Positions 2,349 to 62,340 of a stretch of 64,000 nucleotides of DNA are shown here, in pieces. Below the pieces are notes generated by a model that was given only the letters and a program-made list of their open reading frames with translations, was not told the DNA's origin and searched no databases. Within the stretch, counting starts at the first letter, position 1. The number at the start of each line of letters is the position of its first letter. This DNA is from Anaerolineae bacterium (lineage in GTDB: Bacteria; Chloroflexota; Anaerolineae; UBA1429), in contig OY776562.1 in assembly GCA_963675785.1 (NCBI GenBank), forward strand, positions 2,080,001 to 2,144,000, read 5' to 3'. Position numbers and translations under genes: made by a program.

Positions 2349-3530
2349 TCAAACAGATGGATCCAGTGGTCTGGTTTCGTCACCGTCAGCCGACTCATCC
2401 TCATCATTCTCTGCATCTGGAAAAGAGTCAGTATCTTCAGATTCATCTTCCAAGAGATCTTCTTCCATATCGTTCAGAAGAGCGGTGAATCCGGCAATGC
2501 TATCATCGAGGTCAGAATCGTTGATCTCGCTCTCAAAAAGCTTTTGCGTATCGCCCTTGGTTGACATGGAACCAGACGACGCCTTATCAGGCGACTGTAC
2601 AGTCCGAATCTGTTGCAGGGCATCCACTTTGGTAATGAGCAACGCCCCTACTCCCCAGGCCTCAGCAGCCAGCAATAGAATCGTCCCCACACAGGGCACA
2701 TAAGAGAGCAGCCCCAGTAACGCAGCGCCAAGCAATGTCTCAGTAACGGCATTCATCGATTTGAGAGACAGCAAGCGGGCTAAACGCTGGCCCAGCCAAC
2801 GCCCTACTGCCGCCCAGCCAAAGAGCGCGGCGACAAGTATGAACACTCCCAAAACCAACAACAGTGGAATGCCGATGCAAATAAGTGAGAGTACGCCGAA
2901 CAAAATCGCCAGCACAATGACAAGAACGATTGTCAGGGCGCCGATGCCCACACTGGCGATCCAGTCCGTCGTCATCACCAAATTGGTTTCTTCAATCGCC
3001 CTGGGGGCAATGAGAACCGCTAATACCGCCAGCCCCAGAATGAGGATGAACGACAATGAACGACCCAAAACGTTGGATGTATCCGCATATTGCACTTTAG
3101 TAATCTCTTGGGTTACCGAAGGAAATACGTCTCCAGAGGAGAATCCAATACGATCACCAAGGATCTGAGCTCCCTCTTGTTCTTGAAGGCTCCCCAGATT
3201 GACAAGATCACCTTCAATCAATGCTGTCGATTCGACGTTGATTTGTCCACCAAAAACGACGACATCACCACTTACTGTACCGGCGAGGGTTAGATCGCCG
3301 CCAAATACAGCTACACTGCCATCTACAAAGCTGTCTTCCATGAGTGAGGCTGATCCGCCAAAAACCGTCAGATCACCAAGAAGCTGCTCGCCAGAACTGA
3401 GCACATAATCTTCACCAAAGACGGTATTCGCTGTGCCAGAATCCGCCATCACCGGAAATGCTCCCAGCAATGTGACGGCCACAACAAGCGCTAGAGCCTG
3501 AACGAACCTCCGCATCGTCTTACCAGTCAT
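2349..3530 (-). CDS. Secreted/membrane protein with polymer-forming (bactofilin-like) beta-helix repeats, multi-TM region and acidic tail
   Basis: Signal peptide, GDLTVFGG/GSVAVFGG/GDVVVFGG repeats and several TM segments. Start moved to ATG 3530, just after the anti-sigma stop. Confidence 0.7.
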   Translation of the reverse strand: MTGKTMRRFVQALALVVAVTLLGAFPVMADSGTANTVFGEDYVLSSGEQLLGDLTVFGGSASLMEDSFVDGSVAVFGGDLTLAGTVSGDVVVFGGQINVESTALIEGDLVNLGSLQEQEGAQILGDRIGFSSGDVFPSVTQEITKVQYADTSNVLGRSLSFILILGLAVLAVLIAPRAIEETNLVMTTDWIASVGIGALTIVLVIVLAILFGVLSLICIGIPLLLVLGVFILVAALFGWAAVGRWLGQRLARLLSLKSMNAVTETLLGAALLGLLSYVPCVGTILLLAAEAWGVGALLITKVDALQQIRTVQSPDKASSGSMSTKGDTQKLFESEINDSDLDDSIAGFTALLNDMEEDLLEDESEDTDSFPDAENDEDESADGDETRPLDPSV

Positions 3531-3535
3531 GATGC

Positions 3536-4075
3536 TCACCGCCGCCTGGACGAAACGAGCTTTAGCGCATCGAACCAGAGAAAAATCAGGAAACCGCAAC
3601 CGATTGTCAGGGCTATAACCATCACACTGCCCGAGCTATTGACGGCAGACCCCGCCATCCCTCGCAAACTCGAAAATACCGTCGAGATGACTCCGAGGAA
3701 CTGTAAAAAACCGTCGGCAAACGTGCCTGTCATCGACGGAACGCTTGTCTCTCCCAGATTGCTCTCACCACCTGTTGGGGCAAACACCAAAAGGCCAACC
3801 AAAACACTGGCCAGAACAAACACACCCAGACTGCCTAACACGGCCCTGCGATGATTACGGCGTTTGACCTGCTGCATCACCCGCTGAGTAAAATCAGCGC
3901 GTGGCGCCAGAATACGGCTGCTACCCATGAGGGTTGAAGCATATTCCATTTGTGTGAGCAACCGACGGCACGTCGGGCATACAGCCAGATGTTGCTGCAG
4001 AGTATGTTCTTGCTCTACAGTCAGTTCGACATCCTGCTTGAGAGAGATAAGCTCGGAAGCCTGTTCACATTGCAT
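3536..4075 (-). CDS. Zinc-binding anti-sigma factor (zf-HC2) with TM segments
   Basis: MQC...HLAVCPTC (HxxxCxxC); lies directly after the ECF sigma gene. Confidence 0.85.
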   Translation of the reverse strand: MQCEQASELISLKQDVELTVEQEHTLQQHLAVCPTCRRLLTQMEYASTLMGSSRILAPRADFTQRVMQQVKRRNHRRAVLGSLGVFVLASVLVGLLVFAPTGGESNLGETSVPSMTGTFADGFLQFLGVISTVFSSLRGMAGSAVNSSGSVMVIALTIGCGFLIFLWFDALKLVSSRRR

Positions 4076-5254: not shown

Positions 5255-5905
5255 CTAACGCTTTGATAGCTTTTTTTTGTAACGAGCATAAGAGCTGGTG
5301 AAATGCACCAGAGGCGAAGAGACTCGCCCCAATATCTTGCTTTGGCCGATAGAGACCTTGAATTCGTTGGCAGTCTCAAAGGACGGTATATCGACACAGG
5401 CACGCCCCACTTCATAGGGATGATGGGCGTCGCTGCCTGCCCCCTGGGCAATACCCCGCTCGATAGCCAAATCGACCGCTGCACGATTATCTTGCTTTTT
5501 GATGACCCGCGCATTGAGCACTTCGAGCGCATCAACAGTGGCAAGGATGCGCATTAGCGCTTCACGCTTAATCACCGATTTGCGCAAACTATCGAATGGA
5601 TGGGGTATATAAACCACACCGCCCTGCTCTCGGATGCGCCCAATTGTCTCCTCAGGAGACAGGCCCGACGGGATGGTTTCGTTGAGGAACAAGCCGATGA
5701 TCTCACCCTCGGCAGTTTTTATCTCTTCGCCCACAATCACCTTGAAAGGTGCCAGTTCCTGAACACGCCAGGCTCCATCAATGATATTGTGGTCGACAAT
5801 AGCGATGCCATCAAGTTCGCGCCGCTGGACTACCTGTACAAGAGTCTCGGGGGCCATTAGTGAATCTTTGGAAGAAGATGTATGCACATGTAGATCGATC
5901 TTCAT
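5255..5905 (-). CDS. PHP domain protein
   Basis: DLHVHT, IVDHN, PHPF and GSDAH motifs. Confidence 0.9.
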   Translation of the reverse strand: MKIDLHVHTSSSKDSLMAPETLVQVVQRRELDGIAIVDHNIIDGAWRVQELAPFKVIVGEEIKTAEGEIIGLFLNETIPSGLSPEETIGRIREQGGVVYIPHPFDSLRKSVIKREALMRILATVDALEVLNARVIKKQDNRAAVDLAIERGIAQGAGSDAHHPYEVGRACVDIPSFETANEFKVSIGQSKILGRVSSPLVHFTSSYARYKKKLSKR

Positions 5906-5932
5906 CAGCAGCTCTTTTCAGTTCAGAAGACA

Positions 5933-5964
5933 GAGGCGGCTGGCACACACAAGCCAACCGCCTC
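5933..5964 (-). terminator. Hairpin after the EF-G paralogue
   Basis: gaggcggctggc...gccaaccgcctc inverted repeat; weak U tract. Confidence 0.5.
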
Positions 5965-5988
5965 GAAATATATTGAATTCAGCGAGCA

Positions 5989-8058
5989 CTATTCGCGCTC
6001 GGCGCGCTCCTTGGCATCCGCCTGAATCTGCTCAATCAGGTGACTGGGCACGATGTCATAGTGCGAAAATTCCATAGAGAAATAGCCGCGGCCTTGTGTC
6101 ATGGAACGCAAGTCCGTTGCATAGCGCTGAATCTCGGCCAAAGGCACCTGAGCGGTAACGATGCCATTGCCGCGAGCACTTTCCATTCCCGATACACGCG
6201 CGCGGCGTGTGTTCAAGTCACCGAGGATATCGCCCATCGACTCTTCGGGGACAGTCACAACAACATTCATCACCGGCTCAAGCAGCACGGGGGCACACAG
6301 GGGGATACCATTCTTAAAGGCCAAGTGCGCAGCTAATTTAAAAGCCATTTCTGACGAGTCCACCGGGTGATACGACCCATCATAGATAATCGCCTTCAAG
6401 TCCACCGTGGGATAACCAGCAATAACACCGTCGCTCAGGACTTCGTTGAGGCCTTTTTCGACAGCGGGCACATACTGCTTGGGCACCGAACCACCAAAGA
6501 TCTCGTTGGCAAACTCGAAACCAGCACCACGCTCCAGAGGCTCAAAGCGAATCCAGCAATCACCAAATTGGCCGCGCCCACCGGTCTGTTTCTTGTGACG
6601 CCCTTGAACCTGGCCGATCTGGGTGATGGTCTCGCGATAGGCAATCTTGGGCAGTTCGGTCTCGATCTCAACGCCAAACTTTGAGGCAAGCTTCCGTGCG
6701 GCAATCTGAATGTGTGAATCGCCCATACCCGATATGATCAGCTCGTTGGTCTCGCTGTTACGCTCGACCCGCAGTGTGTTATCCTCTTCGGTCAAGCGGG
6801 CAAGGCCCTGGCCCATTTTATCCAGATCTGCCTTGCTCTTGGGAAATACGGCTACCGAGAAAAGCGGTTGGGGATAGGCAATAGGAGCAACCTGATACTG
6901 CTCACCGCGATCACACAGCGTATCCGAAGTCACGGTCACATCCAGCTTGTTGACCACACCGATATCGCCAGCGACGATACGCTCTGCGATCTTTTGATCC
7001 TTACCAAAGGGGATAAAGACCTGGCCAACGCGCTGTTCAGCCTGTTGATTCACGTTATAAACACGAGAGTCGGAGGTCAGCGAACCAGAAAATACGCGGA
7101 AGAAGCTCATCTTGCCAACAAAGGGGTCAGCCAGAGTTTTGAACACCTGAGCGACCAACGGGCCGTTGATGTCGCAAGTCAGTTCAACTTCTTCACCCGA
7201 AGCAACGTCAGTAGCCTTGCGAACCACATCCACAGGTGAAGGTGCGAAACGAATCATAGCGTTCAAGAACGATTTAACACCAATGCGCTCTGTAGCAGAG
7301 CCAGCAAAGACCAGGGTCAAATCACCAGAACGTGCGCCCCGAGAGAGCGCCGAGACGATTTCATCATCGGTGATCTCTTCTTCTTCCAGATATTTCATCA
7401 TGAGCTCGTCGTCAATTTCGACGGCCAGCTCTACCATCTGCATTCGGGCTACCTGGACATCAGCTGCAATATCGGCCGGAATATCCTGTTCAGCCGCATC
7501 GGGCCCCATATAGGCCTTCATCGTTACCAGGTCCACCACACCTTTGAGCTCAGCCTGGGCACCAACCGGAATCTGAACGGGAACAAACTTGCCATCGAAT
7601 TTTTGGCTCAGCTGCTCCAGAGCCTGTTCAAAGTTGGCATTGTCGCGATCCATCTTGTTCACAAAGATGAAGCTCGGCAGACCTTCGTCTTTTAGATACT
7701 GCCAGTGGAGCTCTGCCCCCACTTCGACACCAGATGCCGCACAAATAACCAAAACACCGGCGTCCACGGCGCGAAGTGCGTTCTTGACTTCGCCTACAAA
7801 GTCCGTGTAACCCGGTGCATCGACGACATTCAGCTTTTTCTTCTGCCACTCGAAAGAAAGCACCGAGGCACTCACTGAAAGGCCGCGGCGATGCTCTTCT
7901 TCATCATAGTCAGAAACCGTGTTTTTGTCTTCAATACGGCCAAGACGCGACACCGCACCCGCGGCAAAGAGCATAGCCTCACTCAGAGAGGTCTTTCCAC
8001 TGCTCCCATGGCCCAGTAGCGTGATGTTGCGCAGGTCGGCTGGTTTATACTCCCCCAT
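5989..8058 (-). CDS. fusA: Elongation factor G paralogue (EF-G2/FusA-like)
   Basis: GHGSSGKTS, DAPGY, NKMD, HKKQTGGRGQFG, DGSYHPVDSSE; not in an rpsL-rpsG-tuf operon. Confidence 0.9.
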   Translation of the reverse strand: MGEYKPADLRNITLLGHGSSGKTSLSEAMLFAAGAVSRLGRIEDKNTVSDYDEEEHRRGLSVSASVLSFEWQKKKLNVVDAPGYTDFVGEVKNALRAVDAGVLVICAASGVEVGAELHWQYLKDEGLPSFIFVNKMDRDNANFEQALEQLSQKFDGKFVPVQIPVGAQAELKGVVDLVTMKAYMGPDAAEQDIPADIAADVQVARMQMVELAVEIDDELMMKYLEEEEITDDEIVSALSRGARSGDLTLVFAGSATERIGVKSFLNAMIRFAPSPVDVVRKATDVASGEEVELTCDINGPLVAQVFKTLADPFVGKMSFFRVFSGSLTSDSRVYNVNQQAEQRVGQVFIPFGKDQKIAERIVAGDIGVVNKLDVTVTSDTLCDRGEQYQVAPIAYPQPLFSVAVFPKSKADLDKMGQGLARLTEEDNTLRVERNSETNELIISGMGDSHIQIAARKLASKFGVEIETELPKIAYRETITQIGQVQGRHKKQTGGRGQFGDCWIRFEPLERGAGFEFANEIFGGSVPKQYVPAVEKGLNEVLSDGVIAGYPTVDLKAIIYDGSYHPVDSSEMAFKLAAHLAFKNGIPLCAPVLLEPVMNVVVTVPEESMGDILGDLNTRRARVSGMESARGNGIVTAQVPLAEIQRYATDLRSMTQGRGYFSMEFSHYDIVPSHLIEQIQADAKERAERE

Positions 8059-43551: not shown

Positions 43552-45585
43552 ATGCCCGTCGTTCCTTGGGAATGTGAAACAAATCCAGCCGATATGCACT
43601 GCAATCACATGGATCAATGGCAGATCGACTTGGCTGAACACAAAACCTCAGCCTTGTTAGTTGTGCGCCACAATCGTATCGTACACGAGTGGTACGCTCC
43701 CGAATGCGGCCCCGACGTGCCCCATTACACCGCTTCCCTAGCCAAAGCCCTGGTGGGAGGCACCTCCCTCGGCTTGGCGATAGCAGACGATCTCATCTCA
43801 CCAGACAACCTCGCTTGCCAATACATTCCGGCCTGGCGCGTTGATCCCCTCCGTTCCAAGATCACCATTGCGCAGTTGGCCAGTCATTCTTCTGGCCTGG
43901 AGGATGCCGAAACGCTAGGCAAGGGTCACATGGATCAGGACGGCTGGAAAGAAGCCTTTTGGAGGCGTGATCCCGATCCATTTACCATCGCCCGAGATCA
44001 GGCGCCAGTAAGCTTTGAGCCGGGCTCAGCTTACGCCTACAGCAACACGGGTATGGCCATGCTGGCCTATGCCGTAACAGCCTCCCTCCCCGCGAATCAA
44101 AGCATTCGTGAACTGCTCGAGGAGCGCCTGATGACACCGCTGGGTATCCCTCAGGAGAATTGGCAGATCGGCTACGGTACCACCTACGAAATCGACGGCC
44201 TGCGCCTCAATGCTAACTGGGGCGGTGGCAGCTACACTGCCCGAGCGGTGGCCCGTGTCGGACAATTGATGCTGGATCAGGGGCGTTGGGGAAACCAGCA
44301 GCTCATCTCGGCCGAAACTGTGCGACGTATGCTACGGTCCGTGGGCGCTCCTCGGCCGCCACGGGCAGAGGAACTACACATCCCCACACCGGGATTAGGC
44401 TGGTGGTTGAATATCGACGGCACTTGGCCTAACTTGCCACGCGACGCTTTTGCTGGTGCTGGCGCTGGCCAGCAGATTTTACTGGTGGTGCCCTCACTTG
44501 ATTTGGTAGTCGTGCGTTTGGGTGAGGCCTTTACTGGTGGGTTCCGTCATGATGCCTTTTGGCCCGATGTCAATCGCTATCTGATAGAACCTCTTCTCGA
44601 TTCGCTCAAGCCAGTGATGACACCAGTCGACAAGCTGCCCTACCCCGCTAGCCCAGTCATTCGCGGCATCAATTGGGCTCCCATCAACTCGATGGTGCGC
44701 CAGGCTTACGATAGCGACAACTGGCCCACCACCTGGGGCGACGATGATCGCATCTACACCGCTTATGGCGATGGCTGCGGCTTTGCACCTTATGTCGATC
44801 ACAAGATCGGGCTGGGCTTTGCCGCCATCTCGGGCACACCCGATAATCCCCTCGGTGAGAACATTCGCTCTGCCAGCGGCGAAAACGAGGGCATGGGGGC
44901 CAATGGCATCAAAGCTTCGGGCATAGTGATGATTGATGGCGTGCTCTACATGCTGGGGCGCAACGCTGGTAACGCTATCGTCGCCCGCTCTACCGACCAT
45001 GCGCGCACCTGGGAATGGGCAGACTGGCGTTTCGAGACGAGCTTTGGCTATCCGGGATTCGTCAATTTCGGGCGCAACTATGCCAGCGCCCGCGATGAAT
45101 ACGTCTATATCCATTCATCCGATGGCGATTCAGCTTATCTCCCCACTGACCAGATGGTGCTGGCGCGCGTACCTCGTGAACGCATCATAGAACAAGAAGC
45201 CTATACCTTTTGCGCCGGATTGAAGGATGGTCAACCACGGTGGTCCGCCGATATAGCCGAACGTGCGCCTATTTTTATCAATCCCGGCCGATGTAGCCGC
45301 TCTAGCATGGTTTACAACGTCGGCCTCGGGCGCTATTTATGGTGGCAGGTGCTTACCATCGGCCAAGAACCAGGGCCGCGATTTTGTGGTGGTTTTGCCG
45401 TGTATGACGCTCCCGAACCTTGGGGGCCTTGGACCACCGTCTATAGTGCTGACCAGTGGGATATAGGCCCTGGTGAGATGGGCGGCTTTCCTGCCCGCTG
45501 GATGAGCGAGGATGGCAGAGAATGCGCCTTGGTTTCCTCAGGCAATGATTACTTTAGCGTCAGAAAACTGCGCTTACTCTGTTAA
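43552..45585 (+). CDS. Serine hydrolase (beta-lactamase family) fused to a C-terminal DUF4185-like beta-rich domain
   Basis: SLAK (SxxK), HSSGL, YSN; the second domain starts near PYPASPVI..SDNWPTTW..YGDG..APEPWGPW. Confidence 0.75.
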   Translation: MPVVPWECETNPADMHCNHMDQWQIDLAEHKTSALLVVRHNRIVHEWYAPECGPDVPHYTASLAKALVGGTSLGLAIADDLISPDNLACQYIPAWRVDPLRSKITIAQLASHSSGLEDAETLGKGHMDQDGWKEAFWRRDPDPFTIARDQAPVSFEPGSAYAYSNTGMAMLAYAVTASLPANQSIRELLEERLMTPLGIPQENWQIGYGTTYEIDGLRLNANWGGGSYTARAVARVGQLMLDQGRWGNQQLISAETVRRMLRSVGAPRPPRAEELHIPTPGLGWWLNIDGTWPNLPRDAFAGAGAGQQILLVVPSLDLVVVRLGEAFTGGFRHDAFWPDVNRYLIEPLLDSLKPVMTPVDKLPYPASPVIRGINWAPINSMVRQAYDSDNWPTTWGDDDRIYTAYGDGCGFAPYVDHKIGLGFAAISGTPDNPLGENIRSASGENEGMGANGIKASGIVMIDGVLYMLGRNAGNAIVARSTDHARTWEWADWRFETSFGYPGFVNFGRNYASARDEYVYIHSSDGDSAYLPTDQMVLARVPRERIIEQEAYTFCAGLKDGQPRWSADIAERAPIFINPGRCSRSSMVYNVGLGRYLWWQVLTIGQEPGPRFCGGFAVYDAPEPWGPWTTVYSADQWDIGPGEMGGFPARWMSEDGRECALVSSGNDYFSVRKLRLLC

Positions 45586-45598
45586 GGCAAATGAGTTC

Positions 45599-45626
45599 TT
45601 GATGACATCATTCACGGGTGTATAAT
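45599..45626 (+). promoter_or_regulatory. Sigma70-type promoter of the selenoprotein gene
   Basis: TTGATG-N16-TATAAT. Confidence 0.55.
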
Positions 45627-45655
45627 CGTAACCTGATTAGTGAGTTATGGAGCAC

Positions 45656-46696
45656 ATGATGCGATTCAAACGTTTATTGCTCATAGTCATTCTAGCAGGA
45701 ACGACGCTCATCAGCGCTGCCTGCGGTCAGGTTTCACAAACAACACAGCAAGGCGATATTACGACGCCTACGGCTCTTGCAACCGAAACGCCCGCTACGG
45801 TCATCGCTGAAGATCAACCCTGGACGCTGACCGTCATCCATAGTAACGACACCATGGGGCAGATGGTCCCCAGTGGTTGAAGCGACCCCTGCGGGGGGCT
45901 GGCTCGGAGAGCCGGCGTAATTGCTGAAACTAAAGCTGCTGCCGAAGGCATTGTTCTCGTACTAGATGCGGGAAGCTCGCTAATGGGTACAGATATCTCT
46001 CTGGAGACCGAAGGACTTGCTGTAGCCGAACCTATGGCTGCCATGGGCTATGATGCCATGGCCATTGGTGTCATGGACGCGGTCAAGGGACTCGATGCAT
46101 TGCGGGCCGTGGAAGAAACGGGCCTTACACTGCTTAGTGCCAACATCGTTGATGCGACGACGGGGGATTTGGTCTTTACGCCCTACGTTTTGCTGGAAGA
46201 ACAGGGAAAAACCATCGCCCTGTTGGGGCTTTCGGATGATGATGTCCTGTTGGCACCCGGCATGGATGGTGTCATTGATATTCTCGATCCCATCGAGCAA
46301 GCCAAGGCTTTAGTGTCTGAACTAGCCGAACAGGCGGATATCATCGTGGTCATCTCGCACCTCGGCGTTGATCTTGACGAACAGTTAGCTGCGGCGGTGC
46401 CCGATATTGACATCGTCATTGGCGGCAACTCGCAAAACATTCCCGACCAACCCGAAATCGTCGGCAGCACTGTGATGGCACGTATAGAAGCCTATGGTTC
46501 CTATGTAGGCCGCTTGACGGTCAAGTTCTCGGCCGATAATGCCATTACGGATGTGGGTGCAGAGGCCATCCATTTAGATAGCACGATTCCAGAAGACTCG
46601 AATGTAGCAGCCATTGTACAAAAGTGGGTCGATCTATACCCGACACCGACGGCTGATCCGGCAATCACCGAGACGCCAGCCGCTATCACATACTAA
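45656..46696 (+). CDS. Lipoprotein with 5'-nucleotidase (UshA) N-terminal fold; in-frame TGA probably read as selenocysteine
   Basis: ORFs 45647-45880 and 45983-46696 are in the same frame, joined by 34 sense codons: HSNDTMGQMVPSG-U-SDPCGGLARR..LDAG. Lipobox SAAC. Start is 45647, 45656 or 45659. Confidence 0.85.
45898..45916 (+). promoter_or_regulatory. Candidate bacterial SECIS hairpin
   Basis: Stem gctggctc/gagccggc with a GGA loop about 25 nt after the TGA at 45878-45880. Confidence 0.6.
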
Positions 46697-46725
46697 AAAA
46701 GAGGGGGCTTAAAGCCCCCTCTTTT
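46697..46725. terminator. Bidirectional intrinsic terminator
   Basis: aaaagagggggctt/aagccccctctttt. Confidence 0.85.
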
Positions 46726-47866: not shown

Positions 47867-50164
47867 TTAATCCACACGCCCCTGACGTGCTGAGAACCAG
47901 CGATAATCAATGTTCAAAAAGACTTTGTCGAGTTCATATAGTTCTTCAACAAAACTCGTATCAATATCAGCATGCTCAACTGCATCAGCAAGCTGATTAA
48001 AGCGCACCACATGTGATTCGAACCGCTCTATAGCGTACTCTTTGGCCTGCCCAGTGGTGATCAAAAAAGGCCAGTCACTAGATTCGAGGAGCAACAATTC
48101 GCGTGCAGCCTGATCAAGCGCCCATCGCTCATCGCCTATCGCGTCAGGATGCTCGGCACAAAGCCGTTCCATCCTGGTTTCAGCCGCATGAATCGGCTCC
48201 CACACCCAATGTGTGTCGTCATTATCCCAGGTCCAATGGGTTCCGCCCGCTCCCCAGGAACTCTCAGGAAGCGCCATGACCTCTTCGGGCGGGTTGATCT
48301 CGAGATATTCGCTGGCCGTCACCAAGTCTACCTCGTCGTCCTCAGCCAGGTTTCGCAGAACCTCGCGAATCCAGGTAACACCCTCGAACCACCAGTGGCC
48401 AAAGAGCTCGGTATCATAGTTTGAAGCCACTAGACCATATTGACCAGTCTTTTCGTGATTTTCGACCAACAGCTCGTGCACAAGCGAAGCATAGTGTTTT
48501 GCGTGGCTTATTACCTTGTTCTCGGCCCAATCGGGGTGATACCAGTCTTTGGAACCCAATTCGGTACGGGGACCGGTAACGCGCCAGTACTGCAAACCCG
48601 ATTCAGGGTCTTTTTGATGGAATTCGCGATAATCCTGATCACCAGGATAGCCCCAATCCGCCGACCAAACTTGCTGACCCGTACGATTGTTGCGCCCAAT
48701 GGCTGCAACTGGCGGATCGACTAGCCCGTTGGTGTTGCCCATCACCCAATAGGCAGAGAAAGTGGTGCCACCACTGGTGTTGCTTTCAGCCATGGGTATA
48801 ACATAATGGCGCTTGATCATGCCATAGGGGCCAATGGCAGTTTCGCCGGCAGCCTTACCCACAGGCATACCACCCTCAATGGCGTGCGTCTCCACAAAGA
48901 AACAGGTAATACCTTGCGCCGAGAGAAACTCTTCGATGCCCGGGCGCACCGTACCGTCGTCATCCACAAAAGCTGGCCTATAGGCACATTCGGGCAGCCA
49001 GATGGCACGAGGTGCCTTGCCGAAATGACGCATATAGCTGGCAATTCCCGTACGAAGCTGGCCATAAATAGACGAATCGCGCCCCAGCAGCGGCAGATAG
49101 CCGTGGGTTGCCGCAGAACAAATGATCTCGATCAGCTCCTCATCCTGCAGTTGGCGGAATGCGCCGATCACATCGCTCTTGAAACGGTCCAAAAAGGCGT
49201 TATGTACCTTGCGGTAATAGTCACGATAAAAGGTGGCCAGATATTCGGCGTGCTCGTCACCCTCTTCGCCAAAGCGGGGGATATCTGCTTCGGCAGAAGC
49301 GATCTCTTGATCCAAATAGGTGACAAAATGGGCTTTGATGTCGGCATCGGCCAGTTGCTCGGTGAGAACCGGCGTAATGCCGATAGTCAAGCGAAAATCA
49401 ATACCCTCATCGCGAAGGTCATAGAGGGCCATAAGCAAGGGAATATACGTCTCGGCCAGGGCTTCGTGCAGCCACTCTTCTCCGTGGGGCCACATGCCCG
49501 CCCGTCGGCAATAAGGCAAATGGCTGTGCAGTACGAACGTAAACGCCCCTGCCGCCTGACCGGGGGTGTTGCGTGGTTTTAGGGCCTTGATCGGAGCCGG
49601 GACAATTGAATTGTTTGCAGACCGAAAAGCCCCCTGAACGAGCTGCTCTTTGAGATTCAGTGTCCACTCGATATCGATGCGAACACGTCCTGCAAGATGG
49701 CGCCAAACGGCATCCAGTGCCAAACCGGGCCCAGGCTGCGCCTGATAGGAGCGCGACATATGCTCAATGCGCACAAGTTCATCTTCTAGGTGCTCTAACC
49801 GGCGATCGAGGAGAGCAGCAAGTTCATCCTCAGGCAGCAAATCGATGAATGAGGCCGCCGCATCCTGAGGTACGCCTCCCAGCGCTGTTTCCTGCCAGGC
49901 ATCTCGCAGCAAATCCTGAAGAACCAGTCCACCCTGGTCAGTAATCTGATAAACATTGCGAGCTGGGCGGCCCTGTGCAGCCTCAACGCCAGACTTGACG
50001 ATCAGGCCTTCATCGGACATACGCGCCAATTGGGCATAGAGCGAGGCCGATGGCACGGTCGCCCAGTCACGGTAAGCATCGCTTTCCAGCGTTTTCTTGA
50101 TCTGGTATCCATACATCTCGCCCCGGGCTAGCAAACCTAGAATCAAAGTACGTACTTGCGACAT
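47867..50164 (-). CDS. Fusion of a PadR-family regulator and a GH57 1,4-alpha-glucan branching enzyme (DUF1957)
   Basis: N-terminus ILGLLARGEMYGYQIK..SLYAQL..RNVYQITDQG; C-terminus FVLHSHLPY, ATHGYLP, WLPECAY, YDTELFGHWWFEG, ESSDWPF. Confidence 0.88.
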   Translation of the reverse strand: MSQVRTLILGLLARGEMYGYQIKKTLESDAYRDWATVPSASLYAQLARMSDEGLIVKSGVEAAQGRPARNVYQITDQGGLVLQDLLRDAWQETALGGVPQDAAASFIDLLPEDELAALLDRRLEHLEDELVRIEHMSRSYQAQPGPGLALDAVWRHLAGRVRIDIEWTLNLKEQLVQGAFRSANNSIVPAPIKALKPRNTPGQAAGAFTFVLHSHLPYCRRAGMWPHGEEWLHEALAETYIPLLMALYDLRDEGIDFRLTIGITPVLTEQLADADIKAHFVTYLDQEIASAEADIPRFGEEGDEHAEYLATFYRDYYRKVHNAFLDRFKSDVIGAFRQLQDEELIEIICSAATHGYLPLLGRDSSIYGQLRTGIASYMRHFGKAPRAIWLPECAYRPAFVDDDGTVRPGIEEFLSAQGITCFFVETHAIEGGMPVGKAAGETAIGPYGMIKRHYVIPMAESNTSGGTTFSAYWVMGNTNGLVDPPVAAIGRNNRTGQQVWSADWGYPGDQDYREFHQKDPESGLQYWRVTGPRTELGSKDWYHPDWAENKVISHAKHYASLVHELLVENHEKTGQYGLVASNYDTELFGHWWFEGVTWIREVLRNLAEDDEVDLVTASEYLEINPPEEVMALPESSWGAGGTHWTWDNDDTHWVWEPIHAAETRMERLCAEHPDAIGDERWALDQAARELLLLESSDWPFLITTGQAKEYAIERFESHVVRFNQLADAVEHADIDTSFVEELYELDKVFLNIDYRWFSARQGRVD

Positions 50165-50178
50165 GAGCACTCCTTGCT

Positions 50179-62265: not shown

Positions 62266-62266
62266 G

Positions 62267-62340
62267 TCGGGGCGAGACGATTCGAACGTCCGACCACTTC
62301 AACCCCATTGAAGTGCGCTACCTGACTGCGCTACGCCCCG
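62267..62340 (-). tRNA. tRNA-Pro (GGG), CCA not encoded
   Basis: CGGGGCGTAGCGCAGTCAGGTAGCGCACTTCAATGGGGTTGAAGTGGTCGGACGTTCGAATCGTCTCGCCCCGA; upstream TTGCCT-N17-TATACT. Confidence 0.95.

Follow-up and report, generated by a model that had tools for sequence, protein, structure and literature searches.

A UshA-like selenoprotein gene read as two open reading frames: a predicted surface lipoprotein with an atypical S-G-U-x-x-x-C motif in an Anaerolineae bacterium

UshA-like selenoproteins have been described, if briefly: a passage of PMC2398784 first lists one from marine metagenomes, under COG0737 and with a CxU motif, and the relevant passages of two later reviews (PMC9312934 and PMC13188914) relist the family, giving CxU for the NCBIfam model NF041198 and CxxU for NF049981 (the latter as 'GenBank annotated' in PMC13188914). 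The passages on the family considered here mention no SxU or UxxxC form, no lipoprotein form and no function; the supplements may list individual sequences. Chloroflexi appear as users of selenocysteine (Sec, U) in a passage of PMC1794560, with three families and three selenoproteins, and a passage of PMC5389517 records tRNA-Sec in this group. Here, we analyse one gene (45647–46696, + strand) in a 64-kb stretch of an Anaerolineae genome (contig OY776562.1, positions 2,080,001 to 2,144,000; hereafter the window), for which an earlier note had proposed a hidden UshA-like selenoprotein. Its premise, that UshA-like selenoproteins with C-x-U at this position exist, agrees with NF041198 and with the COG0737 entry in the passage of PMC2398784.

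The gene presents itself as two open reading frames (ORFs) in the same frame of the + strand, 45647–45880 (77 aa) and 45983–46696 (237 aa). We verified the coordinates of this arrangement as first described: a TGA at 45878–45880 is the sole in-frame break, after which 34 sense codons separate the two ORFs, and the 271 codons 3′ of the TGA are free of any further stop. Reading through the TGA as U yields a 349-residue product counted from the ATG at 45647, the numbering used throughout, with the junction ...HSNDTMGQMVPSG-U-SDPCGGLARRAG...LDAGSS (in wider context, ...TLTVIHSNDTMGQMVPSG-U-SDPCGGLARRAGVIAE...LVLDAGSS...). The true start is probably the ATG at 45659 rather than that at 45647, because the homologous N-terminal fragments begin at MRFKRL and a GGAG Shine-Dalgarno-like element (45649–45652, +) precedes ATG 45659 by 6 nt. 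The single coding sequence of the selenoprotein precursor would then occupy 45659–46696 (+; 345 aa, one Sec codon, stop TAA at 46694–46696). The two ORFs are one mis-split selenoprotein gene, as detailed below.

An exhaustive protein search (1.84 billion representatives) returned 11,360 relatives at E ≤ 1e-3. Of the top 150, 28 begin at query residues 81–104, and 17 of those 28 begin at one identical codon, residue 85 (the L, V or M of GG[LVM]ARR), a pattern that arises because gene callers restart after an internal stop. The downstream part of the gene is 81 % identical over all 237 aa to a database relative (P0003). Two others (P0179 and P0196), which end ...MVPSG at the same codon, match the upstream part at 92 and 70 % identity, respectively. 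A profile built from the N-terminal pieces retrieved 41 short database proteins, 39 of which stop exactly one residue short of the Sec column (four of these 39 are pieces of loci counted below). With the 237-aa piece and these 39 N-terminal pieces all standing as separate database entries, the expectation that automated annotation would split the gene was borne out; the names given to split pieces at source are 'hypothetical protein' and, in one case, 2′,3′-cyclic-nucleotide phosphodiesterase. Of the full-length relatives, P0009 is the best, at 43 % identity, and reads ...NDVMGQTDA-C-G-C-STPKGG...; the exhaustive representative search yielded nothing closer in full-length (Cys) form for the window lineage.

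A search of genome contigs with a seven-sequence alignment revealed 79 related loci, nine of which, all from Chloroflexota (Anaerolineales, Anaerolineae and Chloroflexia), hold 11 genes with an in-frame TGA (L001a/b, L002–L006, L009a/b, L012 and L037). These genes share the motif ...P-C-G-U-G-[IV]-P-[KR]-G-G-[VL]-A-R-R-A..., which aligns without gaps to the window TGA. In a 16-row alignment that includes the window protein (A4), the column holds U or C in every row, with Cys in four full-length homologues (P0009, P0018, P0037 and P0069); Cys also fills it in 23/23 CxC domains from the wider superfamily comparison described below. The alignment of homologues called for in the earlier note therefore favours Sec, the column being neither Trp nor Gly. 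Both a Cys/Sec pair in full-length homologues and UGA-containing homologues in other organisms, as expected of a bacterial selenoprotein, are thus present, and by alignment the putative Sec78 codon sits at the conserved Sec/Cys column of a UshA-like 'PCGU' lineage.

Two of the Anaerolineales loci carry tandem UshA-like PCGU genes (L001:1611–2639 and 2725–3852; L009:4690–5715 and 5755–6864), each copy with its own TGA and hairpin. In the tree, the 'a' copies and the 'b' copies group as two distinct pairs with good support, suggestive of an ancient duplication. Unlike these tandem loci, the window carries a single copy; tblastn for a second paralogue in the window found only the gene itself. In the homologues L002 (5959–7035) and L037 (296–1345), TGA serves both as the internal Sec codon and as the gene's own terminal stop.

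Directly 3′ of the TGA lies a hairpin reminiscent of a bacterial Sec insertion sequence (SECIS) element (45898–45916, +; GCUGGCUC-GGA-GAGCCGGC), with an 8-bp stem, an apical GGA loop (45906–45908) and 25 nt from TGA to loop. Folding verified this structure, reported previously as an 8-bp hairpin with a G-starting loop, at a minimum free energy (MFE) of −12.7 kcal/mol (z = −3.83; 1/200 shuffles folds as well). It falls within all of the constraints given for bacterial SECIS elements in a passage of PMC13188914, namely a loop of 3–9 nt, a stem of 4–16 bp, a G in the first two loop positions, 16–37 nt from UGA to loop and an MFE of ≤ −7.5 kcal/mol. The hairpin recurs in 12/12 genes, the window gene included, at equal distance from the TGA (alignment A3, stem columns 31–37 and 41–47, 7–8 bp; loop GGC, or GGA in the window; spacing 25 nt; MFE −8.1 to −15.5 kcal/mol), and RNAalifold independently predicts the same helix. 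Across the 12 genes, 96.4 % of paired cells are complementary, versus 34–48 % when the 3′ partners are slid by one to three columns, and none of 500 shuffles reaches the observed pairing or covariation score.

Compensatory change is clearest at pair 36–42, which is C-G in eight genes, U-A in four and broken in none. Since the two columns fall on synonymous third codon positions (Ala GCC/GCT; Arg CGG/CGA/AGA), covariation at this pair goes beyond protein constraint, and the covariation check proposed for the SECIS region came out positive. Pair 31–47 is CG in four genes, GC in four, UA in one and unpaired in three. This last pair appears to couple amino acids within GG[VL]ARRA[TSNG], where GUG (Val) goes with ACC (Thr), CUG (Leu) with AGC (Ser) and UUG (Leu) with AAC (Asn), the window having Leu with Gly (A3 columns 31–33 and 46–48, window 45899–45901 and 45914–45916). 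The window stem departs from the consensus at four stem columns and keeps 8/8 pairs; since a conserved, covarying helix stays fully paired despite these differences, there is strong comparative evidence that the hairpin is under selection in the window lineage too. The hidden selenoprotein of the earlier note is thus upheld by the U/C column, the in-frame TGA in 11 homologous genes and the conserved, covarying hairpin.

The predicted precursor begins with a signal peptide and lipobox (45659–45724, +; MRFKRLLLIVILAGTTLISAA-C), recognized by pattern against the lipobox consensus. As previously noted from its SAAC signature, the lipobox reads ...LISAA-C, with the candidate lipidated residue Cys26 encoded at 45722–45724; among 12 aligned N-termini this Cys is nearly invariant, its column being occupied in no fewer than 90 %. 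Signal peptide and lipobox Cys together match, by sequence pattern, what is expected of a bacterial lipoprotein. A low-complexity Thr/Pro/Ala/Gln-rich tether (45725–45820, +) would link the lipid anchor to the fold, and similar PT-rich linkers occur in relatives; AlphaFold2 confidence (pLDDT) is below 50 for residues 27–39 and low to about residue 55, as for a disordered tether. A Pro/Thr-rich tail (LYPTPTADPAITETPAAITY; 46634–46693, +) closes the protein, LYPTPTP-type tails being common to several relatives.

The AlphaFold2 model computed with A4 is a single alpha/beta domain (mean pLDDT 88.5, pTM 0.81) and is confident across the read-through junction (block pLDDT 87–95 for residues 71–90). 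The top Foldseek matches are the N-terminal domains of Escherichia coli UshA and human CD73 (E ~1e-24, TMq 0.69–0.73), and profile matches to UshA/5′-nucleotidases of the Protein Data Bank (PDB) reach E values of 1e-37 to 1e-51; the protein thus has the UshA-type N-terminal calcineurin-like fold (1ush, 1hp1, CD73). Pfam returned no family for the read-through protein even at E ≤ 1, metallophosphoesterase and 5′-nucleotidase C-terminal included. The C-terminal substrate-binding domain of 5′-nucleotidases is absent, as had been observed: the NF041198 match covers profile positions 15–272 of 519 and the model has one domain. The protein is the N-terminal UshA/CD73-type domain only.

Within this fold, most of the phosphoesterase site has been lost. 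We compared the window protein with 136 domain rows covering the motifs (113 canonical and 23 CxC domains). Motif I (45848–45856, +), canonically D-x-H, reads D68-T-M70: the Asp at position 68 is found in 111/113 canonical and 7/23 CxC domains, and the His at position 70, which is variable in the PCGU clade, in 104/113 and 7/23. In motif II, Ser110 (45974–45976, +) replaces the bridging Asp of G-D (110/113 canonical, 14/23 CxC). Motif III (46070–46078, +) has V142-M143-D144 in place of N-H-E/D, the Asn being present in 101/113 canonical domains, the His in 99/113 and either in 0/23 CxC domains. His238 of motif IV (46358–46360, +; 111/113 canonical, 18/23 CxC) is retained, whereas motif V (46427–46435, +) has N261-S-Q263 in place of H-x-H, with His at position 261 in 94/113 canonical and 18/23 CxC domains and at position 263 in 97/113 and 0/23.

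The window protein thus keeps two of the eight canonical metal/catalytic residues (D68 and H238) and has lost six, including the catalytic His of G-N-H, so that the complete dimetal/catalytic set (D-x-H, G-D, G-N-H-E/D, H and G-H-x-H) is not found. With the C-terminal domain also absent, the description of a dead phosphoesterase scaffold is apt. The ligand losses listed in the earlier note (DTM, GS, GVMD and GNSQ) were confirmed against the canonical domains; the view that they are unusual here did not hold, for by domain comparison ligand loss characterizes the CxC/CxU clade as a whole rather than the window gene in particular. Positions 110, 142, 143, 261 and 263 vary freely within the Chloroflexota clade; the A4 rows keep D68 in 13/16 cases, an acidic residue at position 144 in 16/16 and H238 in 12/16. 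Three proteins of about 1200 aa (P0012, P0019 and P0023) contain two UshA-like domains each, every one with CxC and non-canonical motif I/III residues, indicating that the CxC domain type is not confined to short lipoproteins.

Of the described families, NF041198 (UshA_like_PCGU) is the closest, being the best NCBIfam match (164.4 bits, E = 3.7e-48). Its Sec occupies the equivalent column of the loop that follows motif I, the residues around it likewise read G-U and GG-x-ARR, and a SECIS hairpin again lies directly 3′. However, the score lies below the 275-bit cutoff, the C-terminal half of the profile is unmatched, and the window protein has Ser at −2 (P-S-G-U) and Cys at +4. It also differs as a short lipoprotein form with a Pro/Thr-rich tether and tail that, among the loci found, occurs in Chloroflexota only. 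All 16 A4 rows match NF041198 best yet score below its cutoff (best E 2.1e-59). The window protein is clearly related to NF041198 and presumably works in a similar way, but because the cutoff, the −2 Cys of P-C-G-U and the full-length architecture all fail, we do not file it there. NF049981 (UshA-like (seleno)protein family 2) resembles it in being short and single-domain, its full profile (1–262) matching residues 61–325, but the match scores 56.5 bits against a cutoff of 140 and the motif is CxxU rather than S-G-U, placing the protein outside that family too.

Nearest of all are the short Chloroflexota PCGU lipoproteins and P0009, which are 31–40 % identical to the window protein and share with it the signal and lipobox, the PT tether, the N-domain-only architecture, the dead motifs and often the LYPTPTP-type tail, as well as, in the Chloroflexota genes, the TGA column, the SECIS hairpin and, for L009, synteny. 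They differ in having Cys at −2 and K, R or M at +4, where the window has Ser and Cys, and in its longer branch. E. coli UshA and human CD73 (1ush, 1hp1, 4h2i) share the N-terminal metallophosphoesterase fold, and in ecto-enzymes of the CD73 type, too, the loop that follows motif I contains two cysteines; these enzymes are, however, dimetal hydrolases with intact motifs and a C-terminal substrate-binding domain, in contrast to the Sec-bearing window protein. SoxB (TIGR04486; 2wdc, 4uwq) belongs to the same superfamily and is the second-best NCBIfam match (100 bits, E = 1e-28; PDB profile E ~3e-25), but the score is far below the 550-bit cutoff, and SoxB has no Sec and, in the aligned region, no CxC. 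A dimanganese enzyme that also has a C-terminal domain, SoxB shows by its place in the superfamily that a UshA-type fold can act on sulfur compounds. On these profile comparisons, we place the window protein in a clade of short Chloroflexota proteins that has no model of its own, as part of a PSG-U lineage of an otherwise known family.

The surroundings of Sec78 set this lineage apart. The −2 column is Cys in 15/16 A4 rows, the window being the exception with Ser76 (AGT, 45872–45874, +), and the +4 column, immediately 5′ of the invariant GG, holds Cys82 (TGC, 45890–45892, +) in the window and one of K, R, M, V and L in the 15 remaining rows. The atypical S-G-U-x-x-x-C motif was thus correctly read. 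Among the N-terminal fragments, 37/39 end ...PCG and 2/39 end ...MVPSG; because these two relatives, 92 and 70 % identical, also end ...PSG, the alignment indicates that Ser at −2 is a stable trait of a small lineage and not an error. As far as aligned sequences tell, the PSG-U lineage is one in which Sec was kept, the −2 Cys was swapped for Ser and, at least in the window, a Cys was gained at +4.

As a whole, the best explanation, which we regard as likely, is that the one gene (45659/45647–46696, +) encodes a Sec-containing lipoprotein centred on Sec78 that is not a nucleotidase. SelB and Sec-tRNA would read the UGA as Sec, the precursor would be exported and lipidated on Cys26, and the flexible Thr/Pro-rich tether would hold the protein on the outer membrane face of a Chloroflexota-type cell, where Sec78, in the loop just after dead motif I, would act as the reactive centre. 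As to chemistry, Sec78 may be a catalytic redox residue cycling through a selenenylsulfide with a partner Cys, which in the small lineage would have moved from −2 (now Ser76) to +4 (Cys82). This putative redox Sec with a relocated resolving Cys is the mechanism that we favour, albeit tentatively and at somewhat less than even chances. We prefer it to a metal site because a shift of the partner relative to an immobile Sec is what resolving cysteines often show and metal ligands seldom do. In a profile alignment, the loop cysteines of a venom ecto-5′-nucleotidase (K-C-TGED-C-YGG) fall at the −2 column and one residue before +4, suggesting that two chalcogens at about these positions can be neighbours; in CD73, the two loop cysteines form a disulfide.

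The strongest competitor, possible if unlikely, is that Sec78, with Cys82 (or Cys76 in relatives), joins Asp68, Asp144 and His238 in a soft-metal or chalcogenide site that replaced the lost dimetal centre, making the protein a binding, sensing or transfer protein or a non-redox metalloenzyme. CxC/CxU occurs exactly in those domains that lack the motif III N-H and the last His (0/23 versus 101 and 99 of 113 for the former), Asp68, the acidic residue at 144 and His238 are largely kept in A4, and the wider CxC domains keep H238 and H261 in 18/23 cases each. The second-best match, SoxB, is a sulfur-handling protein, although that match is far below its cutoff, and the window encodes CutC (copper homeostasis) two genes upstream. 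Yet a ligand shift from −2 to +4 alters chelate geometry, which fixed metal sites rarely tolerate, former ligand positions (110, 142, 143, 261 and 263) are free to vary in the Chloroflexota clade, and CutC does not recur beside the gene in the related loci.

Several observations weigh against a functional redox selenoprotein. No selA, selB, selD or tRNA-Sec, for which an 8/4 form is reported in Chloroflexi, was found within the 64-kb window (NCBIfam on 53 ORFs; ARAGORN), and an Rfam search around the TGA returned no SECIS or other family, only two chance-level matches (E = 1.6 and 8.1). At 35 places in the window a single TGA separates two ORFs of one frame, and by eye only that at 45878 has coding-like flanks and homologues, the others not having been family-searched. 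Among the neighbours in the nine Sec-bearing loci, no partner for redox, sulfur or metal chemistry is recurrent (Pfam, 44 flanking and four window ORFs). Cys82 is seen in one sequence only, the two PSG relatives being known from N-terminal fragments. In the 16-sequence tree, the terminal branch of the window protein is 1.37 against a median of 0.83, which fits a functional shift or relaxed constraint alike, and 8/13 inner branches, as well as the position of the window protein, are unresolved, so that the direction of change is unreadable from the tree. Judged from the alignment, the loss of the near-invariant −2 Cys could mark decay rather than relocation.

Taken to its end, this line of argument would make the locus a decaying gene in which the UGA terminates, leaving a lipopeptide of 73–77 aa at most and 271 downstream codons as untranslated remains. 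The missing −2 Cys, the long terminal branch and the lack of Sec machinery within the window all agree with such decay, but we consider it improbable: the downstream part is 81 % identical to its relative over the full 237 aa and the upstream part 92 and 70 % to two that end at the same codon, no further stop has accumulated after the TGA, the hairpin keeps all eight pairs despite four stem substitutions relative to the consensus, and the AlphaFold2 model is confident across the junction. Slightly less probable still is a phosphoesterase or nucleotidase working with an unconventional site, in which a surface-loop Sec would serve only as a structural or regulatory redox switch, comparable to the loop disulfide of eukaryotic ecto-5′-nucleotidases. 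The UshA/CD73 fold and the two loop cysteines of the venom and CD73 enzymes speak for such residual hydrolysis, whereas the loss of 6/8 metal/catalytic positions, with the catalytic His of G-N-H among them, the absence of any Pfam metallophosphoesterase or 5′-nucleotidase C-terminal domain and the missing substrate-binding domain speak against it. Finally, a sequencing or assembly error, or a changed code in which TGA is read as Trp or Gly, has no observation in its favour and is effectively refuted by three independent sequences ending ...PSG, by TGA at the same column in 11 homologous genes, by TGA ending 11/44 family-supported ORFs in the window as an ordinary stop, as well as the L002 and L037 homologues, and by full-length homologues that have Cys, not Trp or Gly, at the column.

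The gene is monocistronic. A promoter-like site (TTGATG-16 nt-TATAAT; 45599–45626, +) lies upstream and matches the consensus at 10/12 positions, and a terminator-like hairpin (GGGGGCTTAAAGCCCCCT; 46703–46720, +) followed by a T-rich run (to 46727) lies downstream and also reads as a minus-strand terminator. The promoter and terminator ascribed to the gene in the earlier note are therefore present as patterns, but such sites are no more frequent than, or near, what chance predicts (promoter-like, two found versus 1.5 expected, which makes the promoter weakly supported; terminator-like, four versus 1.7).

The neighbourhood is syntenic with that of L009, the shared order being a sigma-70 factor upstream, the PCGU gene(s), a divergent GntR/periplasmic-binding-type regulator (−) and a 767-aa GH57 enzyme (−). 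In the window, genes with a metallo-beta-lactamase fold, for CutC and with a beta-lactamase fold sit between the sigma factor and the selenoprotein gene. The neighbourhoods share lineage synteny only (sigma-70, GntR-type regulator and GH57), and ARAGORN found no tRNA in the nine Sec-bearing loci. The 767-aa product (47867–50170, −), a GH57-type glucan branching enzyme of the same length in L009, matches its family only from residue 208, its first ~200 residues being without assignment, and we take its N-terminus to resemble a PadR-type winged helix. Directly upstream of the selenoprotein gene, a 677-aa ORF (43552–45585, +) matches the Pfam beta-lactamase (serine hydrolase) fold over residues 34–327; its C-terminal ~350 residues are without a family, and it has no NCBIfam match at E ≤ 1e-10. 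The only tRNA that ARAGORN found in the window is a tRNA-Pro(GGG) (62266–62340, −), and an Rfam scan of the window at gathering thresholds matched nothing, not even this tRNA.

Returning to the selenoprotein, the two ORFs ought to be merged and annotated as one gene. The short lipoprotein form to which it belongs is common in Chloroflexota, reaches neither NCBIfam cutoff and is systematically broken in two during gene calling; since the CxC/CxU motif strictly accompanies loss of the hydrolase site, the family ought not to be annotated as nucleotidases. More speculatively, and in our view with a chance well short of even, Sec78 may be the one indispensable catalytic residue of an extracytoplasmic, as yet uncharacterized selenoenzyme class that rests on a dead metallophosphoesterase scaffold and whose resolving Cys sits at either −2 or +4 ('cysteine-hopping'). 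The PSG-U-xxx-C lineage allows mutational discrimination of a redox pair from a metal site, and, if cysteine-hopping is true, selenenylsulfide redox, rather than metal binding or hydrolysis, would be the function of the whole UshA-like CxU/CxC clade.

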